A stretch of DNA of 64,000 nt, from assembly GCA_964016885.1 (NCBI GenBank), contig OZ024743.1:120342001-120406000 (forward strand), given 5' to 3'. Under the pieces are notes generated by a model that did no database searches, was not told where the DNA came from, and saw nothing but the letters and a program-made list of their open reading frames with translations. This document shows, piece after piece, positions 23,794 through 59,984 of the stretch. A program made the position numbers and the translations under genes. Position 1 is the stretch's first letter. Each line of letters starts with the position of its first letter. This DNA is from Eledone cirrhosa (Eukaryota).

Positions 23794-23874
<81 letters not shown>

Positions 23875-23876
<2 letters not shown>

Positions 23877-23970
23877 GGGTGTCACCCAAAAATGTATACA
23901 CATTATGATTAGTTGTACAGGCAATATTTATTAGAATGCTGTTGATGTGTGTATACATTTTTTGGGACAC

Positions 23971-24009
<39 letters not shown>

Positions 24010-24101
24010 GGTGTCCCAAAAATGTATACACACATCAACAGCATTCTAATAAATATCGCCTGTACAACTAATCAAAGTGTGTATACAGTTTTGGGTGAAC
24101 C

Positions 24102-24104
<3 letters not shown>
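23875..24104. mobile_element. Two about 100-bp Tc1/mariner-type MITEs in opposite orientation inside (TA)n
   Basis: 23875-23974 and 24007-24104. TIR CAGGGTGTCCCAAAAATGTATACAC with TA flanks. Confidence 0.85.
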
Positions 24105-24157
<53 letters not shown>

Positions 24158-24160
<3 letters not shown>

Positions 24161-33483: not shown

Positions 33484-36400
33484 GAAGAAGAAAACGCACA
33501 TGGTGGATATATATCGTTATGGAATCGCTTCCGTAAGTTTTTGAATTTTACTTATTTAAAACAACTGTGATAGAATAATTCTTATTACAAATGAAATATA
33601 AGATTACAGTTTTGACTCTCAGCAAGCGACAACGCATCACATTACGACATTGGGCCCCAATATTTAATATTTAATTTTGGATCAGAAATATTATAGTCGA
33701 AAAAGAGAAAAATGGCTAAGTCGACAGACAGGCAAATAATTTCACCACCAACACCACCACCGCCACCATCACCACTACCACCCCAAAAACTCTAGTCAAG
33801 TTACTTCAACTTCTATTTCTACTTCAACTTCAACACCATCACTACAGTACTACGATCACATCATCACCATCACTGCCTCATTATCGCTACCGCCGCTATT
33901 CTCTCCCACTACCTCCTGCTAAGTACTACTAGCACATCGCCACCACTGCCTCATTATCGCTACCACCGCTATTCTCTCCCACTACCTCCTGCTAAGACAG
34001 ACATCGTAGTATTCCCACTAAATGAGGAAGGCATCAAAAGATATAAATAGACTGATTTGATGACCCGGTCAAAAAATCAAAAAATCAAAAAATCAAAAAT
34101 CAAAATCAAAACAGCACAGCAGAAAAGAAAAAAGAAAAGAAAAACAAACAGACAGACAAACAAACAAAAAACTAAGTCAGACATTCAAACATTACATTAC
34201 AATGAAACTTATGCTTATTTTTTGGGGTTTTTACCTATTTGTTTGTTTGTTTATTTATGTTCGTCTACAGCGTGATAGTGCCACGCTAAAATCACCGGGG
34301 ATGATGAAATCACCGGTGGTTATGTAATCATACATTCATCAATCCTCGATAAGAGTGTTTAAATGTCGAACCTAAACAGTTCGAATAACGGTGAAGTGGA
34401 GACTGGAATGTCATGTGACAGACTCTCACCCAGCAGGTGCTCCCTGGCTCAGCAGCAGGGACCTGGCTGAGAACCAAATACTGCTGGTGTCGGAGGAAGA
34501 AGAAGAAGGAAAGGGACCAGAACCAACTGGACGAAAGAATTGAATAGAACTGTTATGTAATGTTACCTGAAGAGTAACCCCAAGGAAAAAGGCTATAGGA
34601 AACGGATGCATAACATCCGGAACGAGATTGGTCTATTTAAATTAGATAAACAAAAATTGGCCGGGCAGGCTCGGGTAATAAGAACTAATGGGTGGATAAG
34701 CGAGCTGGAACTGGAGCAACTGTGCAGAGAGATTCGGTTGGAAATGGAGAGTGGAGTCTGCCAGGAAAACGAGCCAGTGGGAAATGAAGGTGAAGAGGTT
34801 GAGAGAACGAGGGAACCATCCGAAGCAGACAATGATCTGAATGCTGAAATAAATAATACCTGGAACAAAGATACGGCCATTGAGGAGATGAATGCTGACG
34901 GGCTAGGACAATATTTAGTTGATATCCTAAACTTAGTGGTAGATGAAATGAACAATGATAGTGGGAAACCTATGAACCTAAGATTTGTAGACAGGAAAAA
35001 GTTAAAAGAAACAGCAGCTAAGGTAAACAAAGTAATCCCATACCTTGAGGCGAGGAGCCTTCACCAGTGCAACAATATCCTCAAAGCAACAGCAAATGCG
35101 GTGAGGAAATTACTTGGCATAAAAGCGAGAGGAAACAACAAACAAGAAAACCTGGTGGAAGAAACGGCTGAATGGTCAAATCAGGGAAATGAGAAATGAC
35201 ATTGGAAAGCTTGAATCCCTACTGAATGGGACACTAAAAAACATAGACAGTAAAAATAGACTGGAAATAAAGTACAAAACTAGGAGGAAAAAGCTAAATA
35301 TTATCATAGAGGAACTGAAGCAACGCATTGTAGCAAAGAGTGCAAAAATTAGGCGATACGAGAGCAGAGTCAGTCAGTATAGACAGAACCGCATGTTTGA
35401 CAACAACCAGAAGATATTGTTTGGACAGCTTGAAGGGAAAGAAAGAGGCAACGACTTGATCCGTGAGGCGGAACAAACTAAAACATTCTGGAGAGGAATA
35501 TGGGAGCAGGATGTTAGACATAATGACCAGGCAGTGTGGATTGAGACAGTACAAAAGGAGATAGTGAACAGGCACACCAACAAACTGATTAGAGTATTAC
35601 AGTTGAAACTCTTAAGGGGCAGGACAAAAAACTAACCAACTGGAAATCACCAGGCCCAGATGGTATGCAGGGGTATTGGATTAAAAACGTAACATCCCTC
35701 CACCCGAAACTGACAACCATGTTCAATGACTGCTTGATGTCAGGTGAGGTACCAGAGTGGTTGACAAAAGGTACCACAGTTCTGGTAATGAAAGACCGAA
35801 TCAAGGGTAATGATGTTACCAACTATAGATCTATCACATGTCTGTCCGTAATGTGGAAACTGTTGACAAACATTGTGTCTGAGGAAATCTACCATCACCT
35901 CCACACAAACAACTTGTTACCGGACGAACAGAAAGGATGCCGAAAGAAGTCCCGTGGTACAAAAGACCAGTTACTTATTGATAAGATGGTAATGAGGAAT
36001 TGCAAGAGGAGAAACACTGGTCTTGCCATGGGATGGATAGACTACAAAAAGGCATTTGACATGGTGCCTCATTCTTGGATCACCAAAAGCCTAGAGATTT
36101 TCAAGGTAGCAGATAACATCAGACAGTTGTTGAGCAAAAGTATAAAGTCCTGGAAAACAGAGTTAAAATCGGCTGGAGAATTCTTGGGAGGCGTGAAGAT
36201 CAAGAGAGGTATCTTCCAGGGAGATAGTCTGTCCCCTCTGTTGTTTGTCCTTGCCCTGATGCCCCTGACCATTATACTGCGAAAAGTGAGAGCAGGATAC
36301 AAGTTGGGAAAGGGAGAGGTTACCATCAATCACCTCCTCTTCATGGACGATCTTAAGCTCTTCGGGAAGAGTGAGAAGGAGTTGGATGTGCTTGTTGACT

Positions 36401-37475
36401 AGGAAGCTATTGACTATCTACAACATGTTCCACAAGAGGAGTGATGTCGATAGACTCTACTTAAGGAGATCTGAAGGTGGAAGAGGTCTTATCAGCATAG
36501 AGGACTGTGTTCAGATGGAGAAAAACAACCTACACAAATACGTGACTGATAGTAAGGAGCCAATGCTCAGAATTGTACTGAAGGAGAGGACAATAGACCA
36601 GGGGATGTCCAAGGAGGAAATAACAACAAGGAGAAAGAGCAGGCTTCATGAAAAGTCCGTTCATAGTACCTTCTTTGAGAAAACTGAATTCAGAAATCCA
36701 CAGACATGGAACTGGTTGAAAAGAGGAGACCTTAAAAAGGCTACAGAAGGAATGCTAATGGCTGCGCAAGAGCAGGCTCTCAAAACGAAGTGGCTGAAAC
36801 ACCATATTTGCAAGGAGGAGGCTAGCCCACTGTGCAAGATCTGTGGAGAGAGGAGACTGTGGGCTCACATTGTATCCGAGTGTAAACACCTAGCCCAGAC
36901 TCACTATAAAGGCTGGAGACATGATGTGATGGGCAGGGTGATCCACTGGCACCTATGCAAAGTAAACAATTTACCACATTCTGAGAAGTGGTATGAGCAT
37001 AAGCCAGAGTCGGTGATAGAAAACGATCAGGTGAAGGTGCTGTGGGATTTTAGGATACAGACGGACAAGAAACTGGAACACAATAGACCTGACCTGGTGG
37101 TTTTGGACAAGGAAAAAAGATCGTGCCTGATTGTGGATGTGGCCTGCCCATTCGACACGAGAGTGCAAGAGAAGGAGAGGGAGAAAATTAACCGATACCA
37201 GGACTTAAAGTGGGGGGTAAAAAGGATTTGGAACTGCCATGAAGTTAAAGTAGTCCCGATTGTCATAGGCGCACTAGGTACTATCTCAAAGAGTTTCCAG
37301 GGATGGTTAAAGAAAATTGGCCCCGCCCCGATTTTTGGAACACTTCCAAAAGGCATGCTTGCTGGGAACAGCAAGAACCCTCCGATACGTCCTGAATATC
37401 TGAGGCTGCAGGTAGCGGCTTGATATTCATTTCAACAAACTTCCAGTTAAATAACATCAATGACTGAGACTCAAA

Positions 37476-37476
<1 letters not shown>
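33484..37476 (+). mobile_element. R4/Dong-clade RLE non-LTR retrotransposon, copy A (disrupted)
   Basis: RT motifs DYKKAFD, QGDSLSP, FMDD; CCHC remnant; RHD; RPDLVVLD..DVACPFD..KINRY. Likely ATG at 34363, in-frame stop at about 34558, frameshifts, and a 374-bp deletion at about 36398. (AAT)n at 33441-33483 and 37477-37527. The 5' boundary is inferred. Confidence 0.9.
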
Positions 37477-37529
<53 letters not shown>

Positions 37530-37789
37530 TTTCTTTATTAACCACAAGGGTTTACATAAAGTAGACATTAAGGACAGTGCAGGACAATGCAGGACGGTAC
37601 AAATGGGCATTTCTGCGTGTAAAAAAACAAAAACAGAGGATGTAACAAAAATAACAATGAAAATAACAATGAAAAATTCCCCAATAGGGGGGAGACTTCG
37701 GAGGGACATTTGTGGAGAAAGCCCAGTAAAAAGCCACAATGACCCTGACCACCAAGGCAAGTGCCCTCTCCCAGTTTTCCACCTTTAGT

Positions 37790-40700
37790 TTACAGATATA
37801 TACTCAGAGTCGGCCCATTCACTCGGGCCATTCTTGCTTCTCTCACCCATCTTTCAACAAAATGCTGGGAAGAGAGCACTTCCTTCTCTACTCTGATTTT
37901 CCTTTTCAAATGAAATTTGAAAAAGTCAATCAGAGCATCACCGAAGAGGTAAGTGCTCGTCTTCAGCCCTTTCAAACGTGTCCACCATACTATCTCTTTC
38001 GCCATGGCCACCAGACAGATAAAAACTGCCTGCCCTTCCCGGCTAAAGGAGGAGGGCGGGGCAATCCTCACGATAGACTCAGATGATAGCTGGATCCGTC
38101 CCAAACGCGACAGCAGGTGTTCGACATAAACCCACAAGTCAGCAATTTTCGGACACTGGACGAGTGCGTGCAGGACGGTTTCGTCGCCCTGCGCGCATCT
38201 CGGACATGCCCGGCTGACGGCACCTCCATGCCTGTAGAGTTTATCCCGAACTGGCAAGGCTCCTCGGTAGCACTGCCAGGCCAGAGATTTCTGGAAGTTG
38301 TCCATAGGCCCTGGCCCGAAAGTTCTTCCGAAGAGATTGGCTAGTTGATTTTCGTCGACGCCTAGAGTTTCCCCAAGTACGTCGTCGCTCTTCCCCTCCA
38401 CTAATCCTCTATAGAACGCCGAGGTGGAGTTTCCACCGATCACATTGCCCGATTGGTCGAGGGCTGTGAGCGCCTGAAGACATTCCAGTCTCCAGGCGCT
38501 CCCTCTCGGTCTTCGCTTGACCCAGGACTGCAGCTCCGTCAAGGAAACGAGCTGGGGAAAAACGCGTCTAGCAAACGGCGACCACACCTGATCACCGTCG
38601 AGGAAGAGGTGGAGATGTCGTAGCCTGAGCGCGTGCCTGCGCATCATCAGCCACGGCATGCCCAGCCCTCCACGTAGCGGGTGTTGACAACAGATGGACC
38701 GCCTGACCATCGGAGCACGTCCCTTCCACAAAAAGCGAAAGAGCAAACGCTCCAGCGCAGTCAGGCGAGGCTTAGGACAAGGTACGACGGTTAGGCGGTA
38801 GCAGATGACAGACGCGATGTACGCGTTAGCCACCTCCGCTCGACCTTTCAGGGATAGCTTCCTCTCCGCCCATTTCTGGGTGAGAGAAGCCACCCTGCTC
38901 GTTACCTCGTCCCAGTTTTTGTCCGTCTGGAGGTCCGGACCGAACCAGACCCCTAGCAATTTAACCGGTCCGTCCGTCCAGCGCCCGACGACGCTGTTGG
39001 ACGGCATGGACCTGCCTCTCCAGGTGCCGAGCTGCAGGCCCACTGACTTTTCCTGGTTGATCATTGCTCCTGTCACCGCTTCGTATTCTCTTAGTGTAGT
39101 GCCGATCGCCTCGATGTGTTTGGCGTTCGACACCACTACGGTGACATCGTCCGCATATGCTGACACGGATCTTCCGCATCCTAGTTCGCGCGGGACTCCC
39201 CTCAACGTCTCCAGTTTGTGCAGTAATGGCTCGAGAGTCAATACGTACAAGAGGGACGAGAGGGGACATCCTTGGCGGACCGAGCGCATGATGTTGAACG
39301 GTTCCGACAGGTGACCGTTCACTCTCACCACAGAGCAGATGTCGCTGTGCATGGCAGCGATCCAGCCTCTGAAGACGGGCCCAAAGCCAGCCGCCCTCAG
39401 GACTGCCGCTAGGTAACGATGGTCGACCCTATCGAAAGCTTTCGACTGATCTAAATTGATCAAGGACCCACCCGTGCCAGGTTCCCTAGCTACCCTCTCT
39501 ACGATGTATCGCATGAGGTGGAGGTTGTCGTGGATGGATCTGTCGGGAATGGCGCATGTCTGCGCCTCTCCCACCAGACCACCAACGACAAGCGCCAACC
39601 TCTTTGCTAGCACCTTGGCCAAAATCTTAAACTCTGTGTTTAGCAGAGTTATGGGCCGGAAATTGTCTATGTTATCCCCCTTGTTCGGATCCTTTCTCAG
39701 CAGTGCCACCGCTCCTCGGCTCACAGAACTGGGAATTCTCCCGTTCTGTTGCCAGTTGCAGTAGACGTCCGCCAAGAGGCCTCCGAACAAGTCTGGCATC
39801 TGTACGTAAAGTTCATAGGGCAGACCATCCAAACCAGGCGATTTACCCCTTGTGCAGCCAGTCATTGCCTCCCGTACTTCAGCGGCTGTTATCGGCTTTT
39901 CGCAACACTTCGCCTCAGTGGCCGAGAGCCGCGGCAGTCCGTCGAGGTAGACACTAAAGTCCATCCCTCTACCCGGCCCCCCGCTGCCCCCGAACAGCTG
40001 AGCGAAGTGTCGCTGAAAAGCTTCACACATTTGCCCGGGATCGAGTAGCATGCGCCCGTCGTGGTCCACCAAAGACCGGATCGTGGCTTTGTTGCCACGA
40101 CGCGCCTCCGCCACTCGGGCCCATTGAACGGCTTTCGTCCCCTCGTGTCTGAGAGCACGCACCCTAGCTCTGACAACGCAGCCTTCGTGCTTTGCATTGA
40201 AGAATTGGTCAAGGGCCAATTTCGCCGCAAGCACGTCGGTCGCAATGCCTTTGCTAAGCGCCTCGTCTAATTTTCTAACTAGTTCTCCCTCTGCTCTATT
40301 TTTCTCTATTGCTAAAGCCTTACTAAACCTAATCGATTCTATTCTAATCGCTCTTTTCAGAGCAAACCACCACTTGTTGTTGACGATGGCCCCCGTCAAC
40401 GCCCGCTTAACTAGTTCGCTAATCCGGTCTCTGTAGGCCTTGCGCGCTGGTAAGGACGCGTTTTGCTTCCAGTAGCCGGGTCCTCGTCTATGAAGCCTAT
40501 CTAAGTCAAGCACACAGATCACGAATTTGTGGTCCGTGTAGCTGACTATCTTGAATTGTGGACAGCCTATGCTAGACCTATCTATTTCCCTACAAAATAC
40601 TCTATCTAGATATGATCTGGATGACCCTATGCGGTTTGTCCAAGTCCACATTGGCACATTCGGGAAATCCAATCGGTACCTGTCAGACAGTTCAAAACGC

Positions 40701-41209
40701 CTGAGCAGGTTGGTGAGACTCTTGCACCCTCCACCCCTATCCGCTAATCCCACACAGTCCCAGCGTGCATCTAAGATCCCGTTCCAGTCGCCCACTAACA
40801 CTAAAGAGCGGGACGTTCCAAGAAAGGTCTCCAGACGCCGGAAGAAATCAGGCCGCCCTGCTCCTGTCGGGGCATAGACGGCCACTAGCCTGAAAGCTTG
40901 CCCGTCTCCGCTGGTCACGTCCAGCACCACCAGCTTACCCTCTGGGTCCAGGAAGATGGCCCGTATGGCGAGATCCAAACCTCTCCGAAAAAGCACAGCA
41001 ACTCCTCCACCCGATCCAGGACGGCTGGGAGATGCGTACACATCGTAGCCGCCGAAGATCGGTGCGAAAGCCTGTGCTTCGGAGATTCTGGTCTCGCTGA
41101 TGGCCACTACATCTATGTTTAGTGACCTGAGGTCGTTGAGCAGGTGACCCTGCTTCCATGACGACCCCAAGCCACGCGCATTTATGCTGCCTATTCTGAG
41201 TGAGGTCAT
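37790..41209 (-). CDS. Tx1-like ORF2: APE endonuclease, reverse transcriptase and C-terminal CCHC (1139 aa)
   Basis: INARGL, ISETR, VYAP, GDWN, SYLDRVF, TDHK; KSPGLDG, FRPITLLN, DQSKAFDRV, QGCPLS, YADD; CPRC..ETVLHALVQC. Confidence 0.95.
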   Translation of the reverse strand: MTSLRIGSINARGLGSSWKQGHLLNDLRSLNIDVVAISETRISEAQAFAPIFGGYDVYASPSRPGSGGGVAVLFRRGLDLAIRAIFLDPEGKLVVLDVTSGDGQAFRLVAVYAPTGAGRPDFFRRLETFLGTSRSLVLVGDWNGILDARWDCVGLADRGGGCKSLTNLLRRFELSDRYRLDFPNVPMWTWTNRIGSSRSYLDRVFCREIDRSSIGCPQFKIVSYTDHKFVICVLDLDRLHRRGPGYWKQNASLPARKAYRDRISELVKRALTGAIVNNKWWFALKRAIRIESIRFSKALAIEKNRAEGELVRKLDEALSKGIATDVLAAKLALDQFFNAKHEGCVVRARVRALRHEGTKAVQWARVAEARRGNKATIRSLVDHDGRMLLDPGQMCEAFQRHFAQLFGGSGGPGRGMDFSVYLDGLPRLSATEAKCCEKPITAAEVREAMTGCTRGKSPGLDGLPYELYVQMPDLFGGLLADVYCNWQQNGRIPSSVSRGAVALLRKDPNKGDNIDNFRPITLLNTEFKILAKVLAKRLALVVGGLVGEAQTCAIPDRSIHDNLHLMRYIVERVAREPGTGGSLINLDQSKAFDRVDHRYLAAVLRAAGFGPVFRGWIAAMHSDICSVVRVNGHLSEPFNIMRSVRQGCPLSSLLYVLTLEPLLHKLETLRGVPRELGCGRSVSAYADDVTVVVSNAKHIEAIGTTLREYEAVTGAMINQEKSVGLQLGTWRGRSMPSNSVVGRWTDGPVKLLGVWFGPDLQTDKNWDEVTSRVASLTQKWAERKLSLKGRAEVANAYIASVICYRLTVVPCPKPRLTALERLLFRFLWKGRAPMVRRSICCQHPLRGGLGMPWLMMRRHALRLRHLHLFLDGDQVWSPFARRVFPQLVSLTELQSWVKRRPRGSAWRLECLQALTALDQSGNVIGGNSTSAFYRGLVEGKSDDVLGETLGVDENQLANLFGRTFGPGPMDNFQKSLAWQCYRGALPVRDKLYRHGGAVSRACPRCAQGDETVLHALVQCPKIADLWVYVEHLLSRLGRIQLSSESIVRIAPPSSFSREGQAVFICLVAMAKEIVWWTRLKGLKTSTYLFGDALIDFFKFHLKRKIRVEKEVLSSQHFVERWVREARMARVNGPTLSIYL

Positions 41210-41243
41210 GTTTAAATAGAGTGGAAAAGATGGGAAAGACCAC

Positions 41244-43337
41244 TTACCGTACTTTTGGTAGAGGAGGGATGGTTTTTACATCCCTTTTCACTTGATCGTC
41301 TGGTGAAGGGACCGTTGAATCGTCCCTTCGGCTGGTCGTCGGCTCTTCTAAGAGAATGTCTGAATATACTCTTCGATTGATGGTTCCTCCTAGGTCCCTG
41401 AAATCACCAACTGCGTTGGGGAATTTCGTTTTAATGTTTGTGTATTGTTTCTGTGCTATTTTTAGCAGTCTTATGTTAGTTGGCGTTTTGATTGGTGCTG
41501 GTATTATGTAGTCCTGTTGTGAAATGTCTGTGTGTTCAATTATGTAAGTCATTAGTTTCTTGTTGTGTGTGTTTATTGCCGTGCATTTGTTTTTCTGGGG
41601 GTGGGGTGTGGTTCTGCTATTTTCTTGTCGTTGTTGCTGGGTGTGTGTGTTTTGTTGTTGTGTTTGCGATGTTGGTGCTTGTGGTGGTGGTGTTGAAGGT
41701 GTTGTTGGCGGTGGGGTTGTCGCCGGTGGTGATGGTGGTGCTGGTGTGGGTGGTGATGGTGTTGGTGGTGTTGCTGCTATGGGTCTCTTTGCAGTAGACT
41801 TTACCCTTTTCTCATTTCTTTCCTCCCTTTTCAAAGGCGACGATGCGCTGCTTCTGCGTTTGTGCCTTCTTGCGATCTTTTGCCATCCCTCTCCCACCTC
41901 ACACTCCATGTCTGATTCTGTAAGGTCGGGGAGGGGTACCAGCTCCACTCTTTCACTTGTTGTTGTTGGTGATGTTTGCACTGGAGTCTCTGTTGCAGCT
42001 GCATTTGGTATTGCTGTTGTTGTTGTTAATATTTCCACTGCTGCTGGTGTCTTTGATTTCCGTGGAGTGGGTATGGGTGCCACGGACCTATCGTTCCTGG
42101 TTGCCGCTTGTCCTGTTGCTGGTAGCCGTGGAGCCGGATTCGGAAGGAGGGGGGTTTTCTCCTTTCTCAGGGTCTTCTCGTTGCAGAAGGCCCTGAGGTG
42201 AGTCTTCGATCCACAGCGAAAGCATTTCGGGCGTTTGCCCTCAACACTTATGGGCAGTTGAGTGCCGTTATCGAAGTCTATCACATCCGGGATAGCTTCG
42301 ATGCACTCCTGGTTGGTTTGGATTAGCATCTCAATGGAGGAGCCGACCCAATCTTCTCTTACTTTTTTCTGTACTTGCAGTACAGTTGTTTTGTCCTCGA
42401 TTCCGACGAGGACAGACGCGGCCAGCCAAGAAGGGGTCATTCCGGGGGGGACGTGGGTCAGTTTGACCCTCACAATTTTTTGCCCGCAGTAGGAGGGCAC
42501 CAACACCATTTCCTCGCTCCTTAGGGTCACTACTGATTGGGCCTTTGCCTCCTGGGGTGTGGCAAAAAGTACGTCTACGGTGGCGTATTTTTTGCCTCGG
42601 GTGATGTGCGTTTTCCTCTGCCACACAGACCCCAAGGCTTTTTGTATTTGGGCCTCTGTGGCTCTTTCCACCCTACGGGATTTTGTACTTACTGTACGGT
42701 ACGTGACCGTACAGTGCTCTTGGGTTTCGAAAAAATTTTTCGCTGCCTTGCAGATTGCTCGGTGTCCGTTCTTTGTCACCATCTTCTTCGCTTCCTCTAA
42801 TTCCTCATTTGTTATGAGGATTGTTTCCAAGTTTTTCGCAATACCTGCAAATGAGATTGGTTTTTCTCTGCTGTTGTTGTTGTCGTCAGAGCTGCTGGTA
42901 CTTTTGTTGCTGCAGGTACTACGACTACTGCCTCCGCCGCTGTTGCTGTGGTTGTTGTTGGTGTTGCTGCTGCTAATGCTGTTGTTGTTTATGCTGCTGG
43001 TGATGCTGTTGCGGCTGCTACTGTTGTTTTCATTGTCACTGTTGCTGTTGTTATTACGGCTGCTACTGCTATTATTCCTGACGTCAGACGAATGAACTGG
43101 GTTTTCGTATTTCCCGCACACCTGTTTCGTCGCTGTCGTCGTCGTCGTGGAGAAACCTTGCACGCTTTGCACGAGACTTTTCTTTTCTTTCGTCGCTTGC
43201 GAAAGAGAAGGGAGGGAGAGAGACACATTTAAAGAAGGGAGGGAGAGAGACAATCTTCTCTCTGCTGTAGTGATGATTGAGGAAGAAGAAGACGGAATGA
43301 GTGGGAGTGACGTATGAAATTTCTTTTTGGTAGCCAT
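41244..43337 (-). CDS. Tx1-like ORF1 with gag-type zinc knuckle (type A)
   Basis: Open frame from MATKKK (ATG at 43337). Contains CFRCGSKTHLRAFC and Ser/Asn- and Pro/Thr-rich low-complexity flanks. Confidence 0.85.
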   Translation of the reverse strand: MATKKKFHTSLPLIPSSSSSIITTAERRLSLSLPSLNVSLSLPSLSQATKEKKSLVQSVQGFSTTTTTATKQVCGKYENPVHSSDVRNNSSSSRNNNSNSDNENNSSSRNSITSSINNNSISSSNTNNNHSNSGGGSSRSTCSNKSTSSSDDNNNSREKPISFAGIAKNLETILITNEELEEAKKMVTKNGHRAICKAAKNFFETQEHCTVTYRTVSTKSRRVERATEAQIQKALGSVWQRKTHITRGKKYATVDVLFATPQEAKAQSVVTLRSEEMVLVPSYCGQKIVRVKLTHVPPGMTPSWLAASVLVGIEDKTTVLQVQKKVREDWVGSSIEMLIQTNQECIEAIPDVIDFDNGTQLPISVEGKRPKCFRCGSKTHLRAFCNEKTLRKEKTPLLPNPAPRLPATGQAATRNDRSVAPIPTPRKSKTPAAVEILTTTTAIPNAAATETPVQTSPTTTSERVELVPLPDLTESDMECEVGEGWQKIARRHKRRSSASSPLKREERNEKRVKSTAKRPIAATPPTPSPPTPAPPSPPATTPPPTTPSTPPPQAPTSQTQQQNTHTQQQRQENSRTTPHPQKNKCTAINTHNKKLMTYIIEHTDISQQDYIIPAPIKTPTNIRLLKIAQKQYTNIKTKFPNAVGDFRDLGGTINRRVYSDILLEEPTTSRRDDSTVPSPDDQVKRDVKTIPPLPKVR

Positions 43338-43550
43338 GTTTTTTTGTTTAAAATGAAATTTTGGGTACAAAACCCCAATAACTGGTTATTTAACCCCGAA
43401 GGGCCAAATAACGGACAGAAAGACCCCTCTCACGAGGAGGAGGGTGTCTTTATCAACAATTTGGTTCAAGTTTTAAACAATTTACAATTGTTTTAACGGT
43501 TAAAAATTACTATACCTTACAGAGCCGAGCCTCCGTCAACCATGGCATTC

Positions 43551-43582
<32 letters not shown>

Positions 43583-43584
<2 letters not shown>

Positions 43585-46500
43585 TTGTTTTCTTAACCAC
43601 AAGGGTTCACATAAAGTAGACATTAAGGACAGTACAGGACAATACAGGACGGTACAAATGGGCATTTCTGCGTGTAAAAAAACAGAGGTTGAAATAAAAT
43701 AACAAAGAAAAATTCCCCAATAGGGGGGAGACTTCCAAGGGACATTTGTGGAGAAAGCCCATTAAAAGACCACAGTGGCCCAGACCACCAGGGCAAGTGC
43801 CCTCTCCCAGTTTTCCACCTTTAATTTACAGACACATACTCAGAGAAGGCCCATTCATTCGGGCCATACTTGCTTCTCTCACCCATCTTTCAACAAAATG
43901 CTGGGAAGAGAGCACTTCCCTCTCTACCCTGATTTTCCTTTTCAAATGAAATTTGAAAAAGTTAATCAGGGCATCACCGAAGAGGTAAGTGCTCGTCTTC
44001 AGCCCTTTCAAACGTGTCCACCATACTATCTCTTTCGCCATGGCCACCATACAGATAAAAACTGCCTGCCCTTCCAGGCAGGGGGTGGGGCAATCCTCAC
44101 TATGGACTCAGCTGATAGCTGGATAGGTCCTACACGTGACAGCAGGTGTTCGACATAAACCCACAAGTCAGCAATGCTCGGACACTGGACGAGTGCGTGC
44201 AGGACGGTTTCGTCGCCCTGCGCGCATCTCGGACATGCCCGGCTGACGGCACCTCCATGCCTGTAGAGTTTATCCCGAACTGGCAAAGCTCCTCGGTAGC
44301 ACTGCCAGGCCAGGGATTTCTGGAAGTTGTCCATAGGCCCCGGCCCGAAAGTCCTTCCGAAGAGATTGGCTAGTTCATTTTCGTCGACGCCTAGAGTTTC
44401 TCCAAGTACGTCGTCGCTCTTCCCCTCCACTAATCCCCTATAGAACGCCAAGGTGGAGTTTCCACCGATCACATTGCCCGATTGGTCGAGGGCTGTGAGC
44501 GCCTGAAGACATTCCAGTCTCCAAGCGCTCCCTCTCGGTCTTCGCTTGACCCAGGACTGCAGCTCAGTCAAGGAGACGAGCTGGGGAAAAACGTGTCTTG
44601 CAAACGGCGACCACACCTGATCACCGTCGAGGAAGAGGTGGAGATGTCGTAGCCTGAGCGCGTGTCAGCGCATCATCAGCCACGGCATGCCCAGCCCTCC
44701 ACGTAGCGGGTGTTGACAGCAGATGGACCGCCTGACCATCGGAGCGCGTCCCTTCCACAAGAAGCGAAAGAGCAAACGCTCCAGCGCAGTCAGGCGGGGC
44801 TTAGGACAAGGTACGACGGATGCGATGCGATGAACGGATTCGCCACCTCCGCTCGACCTTTCAGGGATAGCTTCCTCTCCGCCCATTTCTGGGTGAGAGA
44901 AGCCACCCTGCTCGTCACCTCGTCCCAGTTTTTGTCCGTCTGGAGGTCTGGACCGAACCAGACCCCTAGCAATTTAACCGGTCCGTCCGTCCAGCGCCCG
45001 ACGACGCTGTTGGACGGCATGGACCTGCCTCTCCAGGTGCCGAGCTGCAGGCCCACTGACTTTTCCTGATTGATCATTGCTCCTGTCACCGCTTCGTATT
45101 CTCTTAGTGTAGTGCCGATCGCCTCGATGTGTTTGGCGTTCGACACCACTACGGTGACATCGTCGGCATATGCTGACACGGATCTTCCGCATCCTAGTTC
45201 GCGCGGGACCCCCCTCAACATCTCCAGTTTGTGCAGTAATGGCTCGAGAGTCAATACGTACAATAGGGACGAGAGGGGACATCCTTGGCGGACCGAGCGC
45301 ATGATGTTGAACGGTTCCGAAAGGTGACCGTTCACTCTCACTACAGAGCAGATGTCGCTGTGCATGGCAGCGATCCAGCCTCTGAAGACGGGCCCAAAGC
45401 CAGCCGCCCTCAGGACTGCCGTTAGGTAACGATGGTCGACCCTATCGAAGGCTTTCGACTGATCTAAATTGATCAAAGACCCACCCGTGCCAGGTTCCCT
45501 AGCTACCCTCTCTACGATGTATCGCATGAGGTGGAGGTTGTCGTGGATGGATCTGTCGGGAATGGCGCATGTCTGCGCCTCTCCCACCAGACCACCAACG
45601 ACAAGCGCCAACCTCTTTGCTAGCACCTTGGCCAAAATCTTGAACTCTGTGTTTAGCAGAGTTATGGGCCTAAAATTATCTATGTTATCCCCCTTGTTCG
45701 GATCCTTTCTCAGCAGCGCCACCGCTCCTCGGCTCACAGAGCTGGGAATTCTCCCGTTCTGTTGCCAGTTGCAGTAGACGTCCGCCAAGAGGCCTCCGAA
45801 CAAGTTTGGCATTTGTACGTAAAGTTCATAGGGCAGACCATCCAAACCAGGCGATTTACCCCTTGTGCAACTAGTCATTGCATCCCGTACTTCAGCGGTT
45901 GTTATCGGCTTTTCGCAACACTTCGCCTCAGTGGCCGAAAGCCGCGGCAGTCCGTCGAGGTAGACACTAAAGTCCATCCCTCGATCCGGCCCGCCACTGC
46001 CCCCGAACAGTTGAGCGAAGTGTCGCTGAAAAGCTTCACACATTTGCCCGGGATCGAGTAGCATGCGCCCGTCGTGGTCCACCAAAGACCGGTTCTGGCT
46101 TTGTTGCCACGACGCGTCTCCGCCACTCGGGCCCATTGAACGGCTTTCGTCCCCTCGTGTCTGAGAGCACGCACCCTAGCTCTGACAACGCAGCCTTCGT
46201 GCTTTGCATTGAAGAATTGGTCAAGGGCCAATTTCGCCGCAAGTACGTCGGTCGCGATACCTTTGCTAAGCGCCTCATCTAATTTTCTAACTAATTCTCC
46301 CTCTGCTCTATTTTTCTCTATTGCTAAAGTCTTACTAAACCTGATGGACTCTATTCTAATTGCTCTTTTCAGAGCAAACCACCACTTGTTGTTGACGATG
46401 GCCCCCGTCAACGCCCGCTTAACTAGCTCGCTAATCCGGTCTCTGTAGGCCTTGCGCGCTGGTAAGGACGCGTTTAGCTTCCAGTAGCCGGGTCCTTGTC

Positions 46501-49432
46501 TATGAAGCCTATCTAAGTCAAGCACACAGATCACGAATTTGTGGTCCGTGTAGCTGACTATCTTGAATTGTGGACAGCCTATGCTAGACCTATCTATTTC
46601 CCTACAAAATACTCTATCTAGATATGATCTGGATGACCCTATGCGATTTGTCCGAGTCCACATTGGTACATTCGGGAAATCCATTCGGTACCTGTCAGAC
46701 AGTTCAAAACGTCTGAGCAGGTTGGTGAGACTCTTGCACCCTCCTTCCCTATCCACTAATCCCACACAATCCCAGCGTGCATCTAAGATCCCGTTCCAGT
46801 CGCCCACTAACACTAAAGAGCGGGAGTTCCAAGAAAGGTCTCCAGACGCCGGAAGAAATCAGGCCGCCCTGCTCCTGTCGGGGCATAGACGGCCACTAAT
46901 CTGAAAGCTTGCCCGTCTCCGCTGGTCACGTCCAGCACCACCAACTTACCTTCTGGGTCCAGGAAGATGGCCCGTATGGCAAGATCCAAACCTCTCCGAA
47001 AAAGCACAGCAACTCCTCCCCCGATCCCGGACGGCTGGGAGATGCGTACACATCGTAGCCGCCGAAGATCGGTGCGAAAGCCTGTGCTTCGGAGATTCTG
47101 GTCTCGCTGATGGCCACTACATCTATGTTTAGTGACCTGAGGTCGTTGAGCAGGTGGCCCTGCTTCCATGACGACCCCAAGCCACGCGCATTTATGCTGC
47201 CTATTCTGAGTGAGGTCATGTTGAAAAGGAGTGGAAAAGATGGGAAAGACCACTTACCTTACTTCTCGTAGGGGAAGGACGGCTTTTCCATCCTTTTCAC
47301 TGCTTGTGGCCTCCTCAGGAAGGATGTCCTTATAAATCCTCCTGGAGAGTGCTTGTCGGAAGTCTCCGATGTCTTTGGGGAATTTTTGTTTTAGTGTCAT
47401 ATACGTTTTCTGTGTGATGCGAGTGATTTGTATGTGTGGAGGTGGTGTGAATTTTGGGGTTGTTGTGTAGTCTTTTTCTGTGATGCTGGTGTTGTGTTGG
47501 ATGTAGTGTAATAATTGCTTGTTGTTCAAATTTAATGCTGTGTAGTGTGTATCGTTTTGGTTGTTTTGTTTTGTTTGCGTTTGTTGTGGGTTTGTTTCTG
47601 TTTCGTATTTTGGTGACTTTTGTGGTGTAGGTGATGGTGGTGCTGGGGATAATGATGGTGATGGTGTTGGTGTTTGGGTTGATGGGGTTGGTGATGCTGG
47701 TGTGGATGGTGGCATATCTGTCCTAACTTTTTTGTTTCTTAGTTTATTTGTTTCCCTCTGTATTTTGTTTTTGGAGGGGGAAGGAAGAGAATTTTTTCTT
47801 TTTTGGTTTCTTTTTTTTTTTCCGGATATCGTTTCCCACTCCTCGTCGTCACAATCTGTCTCCAGTTGTGATAGGCCGGGGAGTGGAAAATCCTCCACAG
47901 CCGTTAGTTTTGGTTGTGGTGTGGTGGATGGTGTAGGCGCTGGTGCTAGTTCTGAAGCGTTGGGTGGTGGTGGTGTTGGTTTTGCTGGTGGTGGTAGTGG
48001 TGTTGGTTTTGCTACTGTTGCTGGGGTTGTTGCTGTTATAGTTGCTTCTGTTGTTGCTGGCATCTCTGCTACTGGTAGTGTTGATGGTTGTGTCACTGGG
48101 GTGGGTAGGAGAGGTGGCCTCAACCTTTTAGCCTGAGGGCAGAAAGCCCTTAGGTGGGTTCCTTCACCACAAACGACACACCTAGGTCTTCTGCCCTCGA
48201 CAATTACCGTGAGGTGGCTGCCGTCAGTGAGGTCTATTACCTCTGGGATCTCCTCAATGCTTTTTTGGTTCGCTTGGATCAGGAGCTCCATCCCAGATCC
48301 GGACCAGTTTTCCTGCTTTTCTTTTGCTATTGTTATTATTTTCGTGTTGGCCTCGATGCCGGCGATGACAGCCGCTATTAGCCAGGGAATTTCGATGGCC
48401 GGTGGAACGTGGGTCACCCTGATCTTTACGAGTCTCTGGCCACAATAGCTTGGGACGAGTGTGAAGTCGTCACTTTTTAATGGGGCCATGGAGTGTTCTC
48501 TAGCCTCCTCTGGTGTTTCAAAGAACACATCCACGGTTCCATACTTTTGCCCACGTCTGATGTGGGTTTTTCTTGCCCACACATGTCCCAAAGCTTTTTG
48601 GATTTGGGACTCGGATGCCCGTTCCACTCAGCGCGATTTTACATTTATTGTTCTATACGACACGGTGCACAGGCGCCGATGCTCCATTTTATTAGGTGGG
48701 GGGTGAGGCTGACCCTGTACCCATCTTTCTTTACGATTTGTTTGGCATTTTCTAAATCTTCTTGAGTTACCGTGAACGCTTCGAATTGTTTTGCTACGAT
48801 GGCGAAACTGAGGGTCGGTTTTATAATGTCATTGTTGTTGTTGTTGCTATCGTTAATATTAATTTTATTTTCAGTTGTGGTGGTGGTGACATCAGTTGTC
48901 TTTGGTGGGGAAGAGTCCATTTTGCTTGATTTCATTTCGACGTCACGAGTTAATTTATTTTTTTCTTCTTTTGTTTCTGTTGTCGCGGTGGTGGTGGTGA
49001 TGGTGGTTGTCGCAGTGGTGGTGGTGGTGGAGGGTTTAACACCTGCAGTCATTGGTAATGGCGGGAAATGAATGTCTGCCTGAGACAAATTTAAAATATT
49101 GCTACTGCTTATATTTTTTTTTGTGTTGGCAAACGTAGTAACATTTACAATGGTGGTGTCGGTGTGAGGTGTTATTTTGTGAGGAAGGCTTTCAGCTGCT
49201 TCGTGCAGAGGTGAAGTAGCCATTTTTTTTCAAAGAAATTTTTTGATAATAATAAAAGTTAAAATTTTGGGCACAAGGCCCCAATCTTTTTAGGTGTCCT
49301 TTTCGGAAAACAATGTATGTGTGCTTATAAACAGTTAACAATAAAATTATCCATAAATGGCAATTTTTAAACAAACGGAAATAACAAACCTTTGCGGAGC
49401 TCACGATAATACGATTTCCTACGTAGGTCGCC
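43583..49432 (-). mobile_element. Full-length Tx1-clade LINE, copy 2 (frameshifted), with a different 5'UTR/ORF1
   Basis: ORF2 pieces from 43826 to 47219 are nearly identical to copy 1. ORF1 is split (48645-49223 and 47254-48627) and has CVVCGEGTHLRAFC. (AAT)n at 43551-43582 and 49433-49491. Confidence 0.93.
47254..49223 (-). pseudogene. Tx1-like ORF1 type B (frameshifted near 48650-48700)
   Basis: Homologous to but divergent from copy-1 ORF1 (QIQKALG, LVPSYCGQ, VEGRRPRC..C....HLRAFC). Confidence 0.85.
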
Positions 49433-49490
<58 letters not shown>

Positions 49491-49491
<1 letters not shown>

Positions 49492-52389
49492 GTGGGAGAC
49501 CTATGAACCTAAGATTTGTAGACAGGAAAAAGTTAAAAGAAACAACAGCTAAGGTAAACAAAGTCATCCCATACCTTGAGGCGAGGAGCCTTCACCAGTG
49601 CAACAATATCCTCAAAGCAACAGCAAATACGGTGAGGAAACTACTTGGTATAAAAGCGAGAGGAAACAACAGACAAGAAAGAGCAGAGCCGTGGTGGAAG
49701 AAACGACTGAGTGGTCAGATCGGGGAAATGAGAAATGACATAGGAAAGCTTGAGTCACTACTGAATGGGACACTAAAAAACATAGGCACTAAAAATAGAC
49801 TGGAAATAAAGTACAAAACTAGGAGGAAAAAGCTAAATATTATCATAGAGGAACTGAAGCAACGCATTGTAGCAAAGAGTGCAAAAATCAGGCGATACGA
49901 GAACAGAGTCAGTCAGTATAAACAGAACCGCATGTTCGACAACAACCAGAAGATGCTGTTTGGACAGCTTGAGGGGAAAGAAAGAGGCAACGACTTGATC
50001 CCTGGGGCGGAGCAAACTAAAACATTCTGGAGAGGAATATGGGAGCAGGATGTTAGACATAATGTCCAGGCAGGGTGGATTGAGACAGTACAGAGGTAGA
50101 TCGGTGAGCAGACACACCAACAAACTGATTTGAGTATCACAGTTGAAACTCTTAAGGGGCAGGCCAAAAAACTAACCAACTGGAAATCACCAGGCTCAGA
50201 TGGTGTGCAGGGGTATTGGATTAAACATTTAACATCCCTCCACCCGAAGCTGACGGTCATGTTCAATGACTGCTTGGTGTCGGGTGAGGTGCCAGAGTGG
50301 TTGACAAAAGGTACCACAGTTCTGATAATGAAAGACCGAATCAAGGGTAATGATGTTACCAACTATAGACCTATCACATGTCTGTCCGTAATGTGGAAAC
50401 TGTTGACGAGCATTGTGTCTGAGGAAATCTACCATCACCTCCACACAAACAACTTGTTACCGGACGAACAGAAAGGATGCCGAAAGAAGTCACGTGGTAC
50501 AAAGGACCAGTTACTTATTGATAAGATGGTAATGGGGAATTGCAGGAGGAGACACACTGATCTTGCCATGGGATGGATAGACTACAGAAAGGCATTTGAC
50601 ATGGTGCCTCATTCTTGGATCACCAAAAGCCTGGAGATCTTCAGGGTGGCAGATAACATCAGACAGTTGCTGGGCAGGAGTATGGGGTCCTGGGAGACAG
50701 AGTTGACATCAACTGGAGTATCCTTGGGAATCGTGAAGATCAAGAGAGGTATCTTCCAGGGAGATAGCCTGTCCCCTCTGTTGTTTGTCCTTGCCCTGAT
50801 GCCCTTGACCATTATGCTGCGAAAAGTGAGAGCAGGATACAAGTTGGGAAAGGGAGAGCTTACCATCAATCACCCCCTCTTCATGGACGATCTTAAGCTC
50901 TTCGGGAAAAGTGAGAAGGAGTTGGATGTGCTTGTTGACACTGTCCGTATTTTCAGCAGTGATATATGTATGCAGTTTGGTATTAGTAAATGTGGAGTCA
51001 TTGTGATGAGGAGGGGTATGTTGAGCAGAAGTAACGGGATCCAGATACCAACAGGTGAGATGATAAAGGAAATTGACTCTGAGGAAGGATACAAGTATTT
51101 GGGCGTTCTGGAGGCTGATGGCATAAAGAACAAAAAAATGAAGGAATTGTTAAGAACTGAATACATTCGGAGAGTAAGGAGCGTATTGAAGTCACATCTG
51201 AACAGCAGAAATGCCATAAGCGCAGTAAATTCCCGAGCTGTGTCTATTATTAGGTATAGTGCGGGAATTCTGAGATGGAATGTTGCTGAACAAAAAGAAA
51301 TGGATAGGAAGACTAGGAAGCTATTGACTATCTACAACATGTTCCACAAGAGGAGTGATGTCGATAGACTCTACCTAAGGAGATCTGAGGGTGGAAGAGG
51401 TCTTATCAGCATAGAGGACTGTGTTCGGATGGAGAAAAACAACCTATACAAATACGTGACCTATAGTAAGGAGCCAATGCTCAGAACTGTACTGAAGGAG
51501 GGGACAGTAGGCCAGGGGATGTCCAAGGAGGAAATAACATCAAGGAGGAAGAGCAGGCTTAAGGGAAAATCCCTTCATAGTACCTTCTTTGAGAAAACTG
51601 AATTTAGAGATCCACAGACATGGAACTGGTTGAGAAGAGGAGACCTCAAAAAGGCTACAGAAGGAATGCTAATGGCTGCGCAGGAGCAGGCCCTCAAAAT
51701 GAAGTGGTTGAAGCACCATATTTACAAGGAGGAGGCTAGCCCACTGTGCAGGATCTGTGGAGAGAGAGGAGACTGTGGCTCACATTGTGTCCGAGTGTAA
51801 ACACCTAGCCCAGACCCACTATAAGGGCTGGAGACACGATGTGATGGGCAGGGTGATCCACTGGCACCTGTGCAAAGTAAACAATTTACCACATTCTGAG
51901 AAATGGTATGAGCATAGGCCAGAGGCGGTGATGGAGAACAATCAGGTGAAGGTGCTGTGGGATTTTAGGATACAGACGGACAAAACTGGAACACAATAGA
52001 CCTGACCTGGTGGTTGTGGACAAAGAAAAAAGATCGTGTCTGATTGTGGATGTGGCCTGCCCTTTCGACACGAGAGTGCAAGAGAAGGAGAGGGAGAAAA
52101 TTAACCGATACCAGGACCTAAAGTGGGAGGTGAAAAGGATTTGGAACTGCCATGAAGTCAAAGTGATCCCGATTGTCATAGGCGCACTGGGGACTATCTC
52201 CAAAAGTTTCCAGGGATGGTTAAAGAAAATCGGCCCCTTCACGCTTTTTGGAACGCTTCAAAAGGCATGCTTGCTTGGAACAGCAAGAACCCTCCGATAC
52301 GTCCTGAATATCTGAGGCTGCAGGTAGTGGCTTGATATTCATTCCAACGGACTTTCCAGTTAACCAACATCAATGACTGAGATTCAAGG
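49491..52389 (+). mobile_element. R4/Dong-clade element, copy B (5'-truncated)
   Basis: Starts at (AAT)n-AGTGGGAGACCTATG and is nearly identical to copy C. Stop at about 50097 and frameshifts near 51765 and 51985. AAC/AAT tail at 52390-52424. Confidence 0.93.
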
Positions 52390-52422
52390 AATAACAACAA
52401 TAATAATAATAATAATAATAAT

Positions 52423-52566
52423 AATTGTTTCTACTTTTTGGCACAAGGCCAGCAATTATCCCAGTGTATCACTGGTACTTTATTTTATCGACCCCGTAAG
52501 GATGAAAGGCCAAGTTAACCTCGGCGGGATTTGAACTCAGTCCATAAAGGGACGTAACTGTGCTGG
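52423..52566 (-). mobile_element. 5'-truncated SINE in the (AAT)n tail of Dong copy B, fused to a Tx1 3'UTR
   Basis: aattgtttctactttttggcacaagg...gatttgaactcag, followed directly by the Tx1 3'UTR sequence aatagggggg. Confidence 0.9.
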
Positions 52567-53332
52567 AATAGGGGGGAGACTGCCGAGGGACATTCCTGGA
52601 GAAAGCCCATTAAAAAGCCACAGTGACCCTGACCACCAGGGCAAGTGCCCTCTCCCAGTTTTCTACCTTTAATTTACAGACACATACTCAGAGTAGGCAT
52701 ATTCACTCGGGCCATTTTTGCCTCTCTCACCCATCTTTCAACAAAATGCTGGGAAGAGAGCACTTCCCTTTCTACCCTGATTTTCCTTTTTAAATAAAAT
52801 TAGGGCATCACCGAAGAGTAAGTGCTCGTCTTCAGCCCTTTCAAACGTGCCCACCATACTATCTCTTTCGCCATGGCCACCAGACAGATAAAAACTGCCT
52901 GCCCTTCCCGGCTAAAGGAAGAGGGCGGGGCAATCCTCACGATGGACTCAGCTGATAGCTGGATCCGTTCTACACGCGACAGCAGGTGTTCGATAAACCC
53001 ATAAGTCAGCAATGCTCGGACACTGGACGAGTGCGTGCAGGACGGTTTCGTCGCCCTGCGCGCATCTCGGACATGCCCGGCTGACGGCACCTCCATGCCT
53101 ATAGAGTTTATCCCGAACTGGCAAGGCTCCTCAGCAGCACTGCCAGGCCAGAGGTCCCGGCCCGAAAGTTCTTCCGAAGAGATTGGCTAGTTGATTTTCG
53201 TCGACGCCTAGAGTTTCCCCAAGTACGTCGTCGCTCTTCCCCTCCACTAATCCTCTATAGAACTGAACATACAACTGAAAATAACAAACCTTTGCGGAGC
53301 TCACGATGATACGATTTACTACGTAGTTCGCC
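52567..53332 (-). mobile_element. Internally deleted Tx1 derivative (copy 3): about 70-nt 5' end joined to the ORF2 3' end
   Basis: 53264-53332 resembles the 5' terminus of copy 2 (49370-49432). 52567-53263 matches the ORF2 C-terminus and 3'UTR, with small deletions. Confidence 0.88.
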
Positions 53333-53386
<54 letters not shown>

Positions 53387-53387
<1 letters not shown>

Positions 53388-55303
53388 TTTTCTTTATTAA
53401 CCACAAAGGTTTACATAAAGTAGACATTAAGGACAGTACAGGACAATACAGGACGGTACAAATGGACATTTCTGCGTGTAAAAAAAACAGAGGATGAAAT
53501 AAAATAACAAAGAAAAATTCCCCAATAGGGGGGAGACTTCCGAGGGACATTTGTGGAGAAAGCCCATTAAAAGACCACAGTGGCCCTGACCACCAGGGCA
53601 AGTGCCCTCTCCCAGTTTTCCACCTTTAATTTACAGACACATACTCAGAGAAGGCCCATTCATTCGGGCCATACATGCTTCTCTCACCCATCTTTCAACA
53701 AAATGCTGGGAAGAGAGCACTTCCCTCTCTACCCTGATTTTCCTTTTCAGATGAAATTTGAAAAAGTTAATCAGGGCATCACCGAAGAGGTAAGTGCTCG
53801 TCTTCAGCCCTTTCAAACGTGTCCACCATACTATCTCTTTCGCCATGGCCACCAGACAGATAAAAAATGCCTGCCCTTCCCGGCTAAAGGAAGGGGGCGG
53901 GGCAACCCTCACGATGGACTCAGCTGATAGCCGGATCCGTCCTACACGTGACAGCAGGTGTTCGACATAAACCCACAAGTCAGCAATGCTCGGACACTGG
54001 ACGAGTGCGGTTAGGACGGTTTCGTCGCCCTGCGCGCATCTCGGACATGCCCGGCTGACGGCACCTCCATGCCTGTAGAGTTTATCCCGAACTGGCAAAG
54101 CTCCTCGGTAGCACTGCCAGACCAGGGATTTCTGGAAGTTGTCCATAGGCCCCGGCCCGAAAGTCCTTCCGAAGAGATTGGCTAGTTGATTTTCGTCGAC
54201 GCCTAGAGTTTCTCCAAGTACGTCGTCGCTCTTCCCCTCCACTAATCCCCTATAGAACGCCAAGGTGGAGTTTCCACCGATCACATTGCCCGATTGGTCG
54301 AGGGCTGTGAGCGCCTGAAGACATTCCAGTCTCCAAGCGCTCCCTCTCGGTCTTCGCTTGACCCAGGACTGCAGCTCCGTCAAGGAGACGAGCTGGGGAA
54401 AAACGCTTCTAGCAAACGGCGACCACACCTGATCACCGTCGAGGAAGAGGTGGAGATGTCGTAGCCTGAGCGCGTGTCTGCGCATCATCAGCCACGGCAT
54501 GCCCAGCCCTCCACGTAGCGGGTGTTGACAGCAGATGGACCGCCTGACCATCGGAGCGCGTCCCTTTCACAAGAAGCGAAAGAGCAAACGCTCCAGCGCA
54601 GTCAGGCGGGGCTTAGGACAAGGTACGACGGTCAGGCGGTAGTAAATGACGGATGCGATGTACGCATTCGCCACCTCCGCTCGACCTTTCAGGGATATCT
54701 TCCTCTCGGCCCATTTCTGGGTGAGAGAAGCCACCCTGCTCGTCACCTCGTCCCAGTTTTTGTCCGTCTGGAGGTCTGGACCGAACCAGACCCCTAGCAA
54801 TTTAACCGGTCCGTCCGTCCAGCGCCCGACGACGCTGTTGGACGGCATGGACCTGCCTCTCCAGGTGCCGAGCTGCAGGCCCACTGACTTTTCCTGGTTG
54901 ATCATTGCTCCTGTCACCGCTTCGTATTCTCTTAGTGTAGTGCCGATCGCCTCGATGTGTTTGGCGTTCGACACCACTACGGTGACATCGTCGGCATATG
55001 CTGACACGGATCTTCCGCATCCTAGTTCGCGCGGGACCCCCTCAACGTCTCCAGTTTGTGCAGTAATGGCTCGAGAGTCAATACGTACAATAGGGACGAG
55101 AGGGGACATCCTTGGCGGACCGAGCGCATGATGTTGAACGGTTCCGAAAGGTGACCGTTCACTCTCACTACAGAGCAGATGTCGCTGTGCATGGCAGCGA
55201 TCCAGCCTCTGAAGACGGGCTGAAAGCCAGCCGCCCTCAGGACTGCCGCTAGGTAACGATGGTCGACCCTATCGAAGGCTTTCGACTGATCTAAATTGAT
55301 CAA
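53387..55303 (-). mobile_element. 5'-truncated Tx1-clade LINE, copy 4
   Basis: Runs from INLDQSKAFD to the 3'UTR, with frameshifts. (AAT)n on both sides. Confidence 0.93.
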
Positions 55304-59940: not shown

Positions 59941-59952
59941 AATAACAATAAC

Positions 59953-59984
<32 letters not shown>

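Follow-up and report, generated by a model that had tools for sequence, protein, structure and literature searches.

A 5' splice site motif at the ORF1 stop of Tx1-type LINEs from Eledone cirrhosa and a distant family, and its possible roles

Tx1-type elements at the locus

We analyzed a window of 64,000 nucleotides (nt) of Eledone cirrhosa DNA (contig OZ024743.1, positions 120,342,001 to 120,406,000) that contains an L1/Tx1-type long interspersed nuclear element (LINE) with two open reading frames (ORFs), in which the ORF1 stop codon lies inside a 5' splice site (donor) motif. Positions are those of the window, and features lie on the minus strand unless stated otherwise. Copy 1 (37530..43550, ends approximate) has both ORFs open and is flanked by (ATT)n at either side. 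Its ORF1 (41244..43337, stop codon 41246-41244) encodes 697 amino acids (aa) with a C-X2-C-X4-H-X4-C knuckle, and its ORF2 (37790..41209, 1139 aa) begins at its own ATG at 41209 and encodes an apurinic/apyrimidinic (APE) endonuclease, a reverse transcriptase (RT), and zf-RVT. Copy 2 (43590..49435) is arranged head-to-tail with copy 1 and is likewise bordered by (ATT)n. Both copies had been described as full-length in an earlier, sequence-only reading of this DNA; copy 2 has the full length but is not intact, as ORF1 carries a frameshift and ORF2 several indels.

The ORF2 modules of the two copies are 95% identical, within a block covering 37495-41292 and 43551-47301 that extends past the donor by about 45 nt on the upstream side. 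The 5' untranslated region (UTR) and ORF1 differ, and the ORF1 cores share 49% aa identity on the common ORF2 module. Thus, 41251-43550 and 47261-49435 represent ORF1 and 5' UTR either swapped or diverging fast over a nearly identical ORF2.

ORF2 matched PF03372 (E 1e-14), PF00078 (E 1e-28), and PF13966, and the closest PDB structures of the endonuclease were L1 endonucleases. In the ORF1 alignment, the knuckle residues C372, C375, H380, and C385 were invariant, and a zf-CCHC domain was matched in seven of the ten aligned members, the window's own ORF1 not being among the seven. An ORF2 with N-terminal APE endonuclease and RT, preceded by a separate ORF1 with a CCHC knuckle, is the anatomy of L1/Tx1-type LINEs. 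By this anatomy and by its apparent microsatellite targeting, compared with published Tx1 elements (PMC4494074, PMC5203782), the element fits L1/Tx1, the tree covering fetched relatives, one of which (L040) adjoins a U2-like sequence. Three copies end in (ATT)n and two start at it, all at a single locus where a target-site duplication is unreadable inside the microsatellite. The named relatives of ORF1 and the endonuclease were from Octopus sinensis, O. bimaculoides, O. vulgaris, and Argonauta. Thirteen L1-Tx1 families are described as recently active in O. vulgaris (PMC13282606). RTE and Dong elements are reported in octopus, with neither Tx1 nor splicing mentioned in that report (PMC9115989).

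A donor motif at the ORF1 stop

The ORF1 stop of copy 1 is contained in ACG/GTAAGT (41242..41250), which matches the donor consensus at eight of nine positions and is the sole sense-strand site of this copy with at least 8/9. The equivalent site of copy 2, AAG/GTAAGT (47252..47260), matches all nine. The inter-ORF spacer of copy 1 (41210..41243) comprises 34 nt, with a pyrimidine-rich first half; in public contigs of the subfamily it has one additional nt. For this junction, the sequence-only reading had proposed a 52-nt intron whose removal would fuse ORF1 to ORF2, and its description of the sequence was largely accurate. The stretches at 41196-41247 and 47206-47257 start with GTAAGT after CG or AG and end with CACTCAG in both copies, and their in-silico excision joins ORF1 to ORF2 in frame (...KVR/EVR-IGSINARG). 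The proposed proximal acceptor (41196..41197 in copy 1, 47206..47207 in copy 2) is the first AG past the donor, at ORF2 codon 5, and ranked 36th of 441 AGs in copy 1 and ninth of 390 in copy 2 by a crude score. The stretch had also been called a pyrimidine-rich, AG-free spacer. AG indeed occurs at offsets 3 and 50 only, but the pyrimidine run (81-85%) lies at +7..+33, and the 16 nt before the acceptor AG are merely 56-62% pyrimidine.

Within the window alone, this arrangement has about a 1-3% chance. The chance of a G before and a GT after the TAA stop is approximately 0.011, and 2.8% of 100,000 spacer shuffles gave a GT after the stop together with a first AG at codon 5. The two window copies represent one observation because spacer and ORF2 are shared at 95%. 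For the same reason, the earlier argument that the donor persists although the ORF1s are divergent is void inside the window, as the copies share that block.

The motif in distant relatives

With the RT as query, prokaryote assemblies yielded 41 loci, 39 of which (L001-L039, contigs CAXXMW01...) belonged to one bacterial metagenome-assembled genome, G001. In this assembly, tandem arrays of eukaryotic LINEs occupy about 19 contigs, with 72 endonuclease matches, and are presumably host DNA contaminating a reference genome set. Several further families were found in G002. The metagenome and viral scans and a first genome scan gave no relative. Compared with the window, the G001 relatives have 51-52% identity in RT and 22-29% in the ORF1 core, with an endonuclease path of 1.58 changes per column.

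Two of the G001 families, A and B, are sisters by ORF1. In a first extraction, 44 of 47 junction reads were of family A, all with GAG TAA GGTAAGT followed by seven bases and ATG. A second extraction, with 17 bases left free, gave 59 reads with 21 distinct strings, all of which carried TAAGGTAAGT, with variation only from +7 on. These read counts are not copy numbers, as the family A loci overlap. The spacer of family A is 14 nt, and its ORF1 stop precedes the main donor, whereas in the window family the stop lies inside the donor. At the end of the family A ORF1, 14 bases, AGTAAGGTAAGTGG, are identical to copy 2 (14/14), where they include the donor, with unrelated flanks and a different ORF1 reading frame. 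The nucleotide sequence itself has thus been conserved, or has converged.

The match in this distant family lifts the ORF1-stop donor above chance. The donor is probably real and selected, as the motif is kept at an RT identity of 52% and an ORF1-core identity of approximately 25%. Additionally, family A carries a second donor island, GTRAGTA, 17 nt past the ORF2 stop in all eight clusters (42 ends), varying only by A/G at +3, and family B has CAG/GTAAGT 44 nt past its ORF2 stop. Given these second donors, donors appear to track stop codons in the lineage. Donor-compatible terminal Gly-Lys was observed in the ORF1 of two of nine distinct full-length relatives (P0010 and P0013) and likewise in two unrelated fragments, which makes it a lead only.

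Some further observations concern the relatives themselves. The exchange or fast divergence of ORF1 and 5' UTR seen in the window also occurs in family A, where ORF1 C-termini are 59-100% identical and endonuclease branches are shorter than 0.07. The family A 3' UTR at L008:8150-8420, and at equivalent positions, has a full retained-intron anatomy with acceptors at about 40 and 250 nt, and was retained in 42 of 42 ends. In run X1, ten contigs of a related family part from the window sequence at position 41184, upstream of ORF2 codon 9, which shows that the genome also contains families with different junctions; the contigs are too short to judge. At L040:2440-2650, the poly(A) end of the element directly adjoins a sequence resembling part of the U2 small nuclear RNA (snRNA), the element presumably being Keno-like and U2-targeting.

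A candidate splice from the ORF1 stop to the 3' UTR

All three window copies contain a U-rich tract followed by CAG in the 3' UTR. This candidate distal acceptor ranked second of 441 AGs in copy 1 (37613..37640) and first of 390 in copy 2 (43668..43690). Copy 3 (53333..55303), which is 5'-truncated, carries the same acceptor, and its exon would begin at 53471. Among the three copies, the U tract varies by indels, and the 60 nt past the AG are free of them. In copy 1, splicing from the donor at 41247 to the candidate terminal exon (37552..37612) would give ORF1 19 codons and a stop, with AATAAA at 37539; the stop codons in the three copies are TAA, TGA, and TAA. An acceptor-like AG ahead of the last AATAAA of the 3' UTR ranked fourth of 370 in the family A unit L008, and such sites account for three of the top four in family B. 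A donor at the end of the structural ORF, with a downstream acceptor before the poly(A) signal, is a copia-like anatomy, and it is present in the window and in family A.

From these motifs, their positions, and their conservation we infer splicing, the acceptor used, and a purpose, as follows. At the ORF1 stop, a lineage of two-ORF Tx1-type LINEs would keep a 5' splice site of the U1 type. The genome would be the unspliced RNA, which would also be the source of the ORF2 protein (ORF2p), translated from ORF2's own AUG, most likely by termination-reinitiation over the short spacer, as in L1 and SART1. Part of the RNA would be spliced from the ORF1-stop donor to the 3' UTR acceptor, losing all of ORF2 (about 3.6 kb), and the resulting ORF1-only mRNA would supply an excess of ORF1 protein (ORF1p). 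In the window family, this distal splice would also swap the stop codon and add 19 residues to ORF1. The different placement of the stop, inside the donor in the window and before it in family A, suits such a frame-independent splice. Donors less than 50 nt from a stop would yield spliced RNAs that escape nonsense-mediated decay. The reading we favor, tentatively and at somewhat less than even confidence, is that an ORF1-only mRNA arises by splicing of this donor to the acceptor in the 3' UTR.

Several observations weigh against this ORF1-only splice or against the generality of the donor. The acceptor ranks come from a crude home-made score, antisense strands score higher as acceptors (14.9 and 13.0), and the 3' UTRs are U-rich in any case. 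The invariant AG in the family A 3' UTR says little because 286 of 490 columns are invariant, and copy 2 lacks the last AATAAA. An ORF1-only retrocopy was found neither in the window nor in G001, where all 69 ORF1 C-terminal matches adjoin an endonuclease match, as checked by eye. Regarding the donor, the ORF1-stop motif was found in only two families among the readable DNA. Family B (two reads) has a TAATG stop-start overlap with only a weak donor at the ORF1 stop (L039:4660-4690), and the 15 loci of G002, which gave eight distinct junctions with 26-31% endonuclease identity, carried the motif in none of the eight. The window family has no good donor past the ORF2 stop.

Alternative explanations

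Removal of the 52-nt intron would instead produce an ORF1-ORF2 fusion protein with endonuclease and RT, as the sequence-only reading had suggested, and we consider this quite improbable. The join is in frame in both window copies, it changes the Leu that opens the first endonuclease strand to Val, which would leave the domain whole, and the 52/53-nt length variation seen in contigs would be tolerated. Short Drosophila introns can likewise have pyrimidine runs near the donor. In family A, an in-frame join is possible in 40 of the 59 reads, from a weaker GT ahead of the main donor to a CAG at a distance of 38 nt. However, splicing from the strong donor of family A would retain the ORF1 stop; the weaker GT lies five bases upstream and its use could eliminate the stop, but the 38-nt join would drop most of the first endonuclease strand. 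In the remaining 19 reads, which lack that CAG, the next in-frame AG belongs to a GAG, and the join loses an Asn aligned with Asn14 of L1, a residue with a catalytic role. The ORF2 Met, which the earlier reading had noted as a caveat and which lies at 41209 in copy 1, is kept in all relatives seen: it occupies the same position in three of three complete N-termini, and in families A and B as well. Lys at residue 5 in two of three relatives makes an AG at codon 5 impossible there. Of the conservation expected for donor, acceptor, and phase, only the donor consensus was found again (family A), and neither the acceptor nor the phase was kept in families A and B or in the relatives with Lys at residue 5. 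As a conserved fusion route, the 52-nt intron fails in family A, where the stop precedes the main donor and 19 of 59 reads have no usable in-frame acceptor. Among the 150 of 300 ORF1 relatives listed, none runs on into the endonuclease N-terminus, and the one junction of a different kind, P0107, joins the knuckle to residue 136. Endonuclease frames do not exceed 1181 aa in all 72 G001 matches, no fused protein was found among 192 candidates of 1221-3485 aa in a weak search with the ORF1 query, and the ORF2 N-terminus query gave one match near its own length and four shorter ones, none preceded by ORF1. L1 proteins favor the RNA that encoded them, and genomic copies of spliced L1 RNAs exist (PMC5860796); given this cis-preference, intronless fused copies should have accumulated if the RT came from spliced RNA. 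A programmed frameshift as the link between the ORFs was rejected, as copy 2 has an ORF2-frame stop shortly before the donor and spacer length differs by 1 nt. Even less probable than the fusion alone is a combined scheme in which one donor and two acceptors would give three RNAs (the unspliced genome, the ORF1-only mRNA, and, in the window family, the fusion mRNA), with a hairpin setting their ratio.

The donor may also act with little or no splicing. In one such explanation, which is unlikely, it would bind the U1 small nuclear ribonucleoprotein and seldom be spliced, either blocking premature polyadenylation at AATAAA/ATTAAA in the A-rich ORF1 or controlling export of the full-length RNA. 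The conservation of the donor without a conserved proximal acceptor and the lack of spliced retrocopies in G001 fit this role, and there are precedents in the U1 site of Arabidopsis EVD, which prevents premature termination (PMC5580714), in foamy virus (PMC3694450), and in the rarely used donor retained by human L1 (PMC5860796). In both copies and in family A, ORF2 is free of poly(A) hexamers, which are concentrated instead in the part of ORF1 about 190-700 nt before the donor; however, their spread tracks base composition, ORF2 being G+C-rich, and ORF2 has no downstream poly(A) site needing protection. The acceptor-like 3' UTR sites would also be left unexplained. Also unlikely, though a shade less so, is a motif unrelated to U1. 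It would then belong to a hairpin or translation-coupling element at the stop, work as a signal in the DNA, or result by coincidence from codons and inheritance. Gly-Lys codons in ORF2 do yield consensus donors by chance, and a second donor-like site (40933..40941 in copy 1; 46944-46952, a perfect consensus, in copy 2), spelled by Glu-Gly-Lys codons, occurs 300 nt beyond the ORF1-stop donor (at 40938 and 46949). A long hairpin is predicted in copy 2 (47228..47303; -26 kcal/mol, z -3.4 to -3.8), in which the ORF1 end pairs with the pyrimidine run of the spacer and covers the donor. It would account for the pyrimidine run, and copy 1 can adopt the same shape 2.5 kcal/mol above its minimum. Against this, the conserved islands fit the donor consensus down to A/G at +3. 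Values of z at or below -3 are frequent along the elements, with 14 of 149 and 18 of 144 windows reaching them (25 shuffles per window), the z of family A junction folds ranged from -2.1 to +0.1, and the two-copy consensus fold did not recover the hairpin, which was rejected as a conserved element on these grounds. Since such scores are common and family A lacks it, the predicted hairpin would be at most a local modulator.

Contig, database, and literature searches

Public contigs from four of six runs, the kind of which is not on record, were aligned to 40400-42000, and two of them span the spacer unspliced (X4 record 9 and X6 record 21). Their indel table contains no 52-nt loss, the joint 41195-41248 is not among the 15 of 85 joints listed, and 41248 is not among the 22 loose ends listed (660 more exist); such contigs show presence, not absence. 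Rfam gave no match on 37000-50000, an exact look-up of eight proteins in a protein collection gave none, and an atlas search returned only generic endonuclease-RT clusters. In the open literature searched, no report was found of a LINE with a donor or intron where ORF1 stops, of a fusion made by splicing, or of a spliced RNA with ORF1 alone, and no value was found for a minimum intron length in octopus.

Other features of the window

A second LINE, which we take to be Dong/R4-like, is present on the plus strand in three copies (34159-37519, 49481-52425, and 56230-59983) with an RT and a C-terminal restriction-like endonuclease motif. Copies of this LINE and of the Tx1-type element are intermingled at (ATT)n/(TAA)n runs, forming a nest of microsatellite-targeting elements. 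The region 21186-25852 contains inverted repeats of 857 bp at 98.6% identity (21186-22041 and 22779-23635), a 340-bp palindrome (23821-24158), and 466 bp at 90%, and these are likely DNA transposons or foldback elements. At 52567-53333 (minus strand), about 65 nt of copy-2-type 5' UTR are joined straight to the last 700 nt of ORF2. This was considered as a spliced copy and rejected, as GT-AG is absent at the joint; an internal deletion or nested insertion is the explanation instead. In O. sinensis, residues 41-102 of a tectonic-3-like gene model (P0001) correspond to an exon from the endonuclease of the Tx1-type element that ends at the Asp-Pro-Glu-Gly-Lys donor, the motif of the second donor-like site in ORF2.

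Discussion

Tx1, Kibi, Koshi, and Keno of the Tx1 clade resemble the window element in their two ORFs, in APE, RT, and a C-terminal zinc motif, in a CCHC-type ORF1, and in microsatellite insertion with tandem stacking (PMC4494074). Their targets are (TC)n or (TTC)n, whereas the target here is (ATT)n, and a splice donor at the ORF1 stop, present here, was not found described for them. The closest parallel to the ORF1-only splice is found in LTR (long terminal repeat) elements. Drosophila copia produces a Gag-only RNA through splicing out of pol, and in both copia and the plant Ty1/Copia element EVD the donor lies at the end of the structural gene and the splice removes the enzyme part, with the U1 site also affecting 3' end formation (PMC5580714). 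Those are single-ORF elements, in contrast to a two-ORF LINE that has its own ORF2 start and for which splicing is a prediction.

Human L1 also has a conserved, rarely used donor, and its spliced RNAs leave genomic copies, the SpIREs, amounting to about 2% of full-length L1s (PMC5860796). That donor is a 5' UTR feature whose products are dead ends, whereas here the donor is found where ORF1 stops, and the window and G001 showed no spliced copy. HAL1 (half-L1) elements, ORF1-only derivatives of L1, have the expected look of a retrocopied ORF1-only mRNA (PMC5753468), but neither the window nor G001 was found to contain an ORF1-only copy. With respect to termination-reinitiation, the spacer is 63 nt in L1 compared with 34 nt here, and TAATG occurs in SART1 and in family B (PMC5972666), so the sister families A and B differ in ORF1-ORF2 coupling. 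A UGGGA core of a termination upstream ribosome-binding site (TURBS) was absent within 90 nt upstream of the stop.

Control of the ORF1p:ORF2p ratio in two-ORF LINEs is described as open for nearly all clades (PMC3894237). A donor held at the ORF1 stop across families that are 52% alike in RT points to RNA processing in this control. If the ORF1-only splice is true, the LINE would keep an intron-bearing genome RNA, a route to ORF1-only, HAL1-like elements would be open, and the donation of exons by these elements to host gene models would be explained. If the three-RNA scheme were also true, splicing-set protein ratios would be a strategy shared by LINEs and LTR elements.

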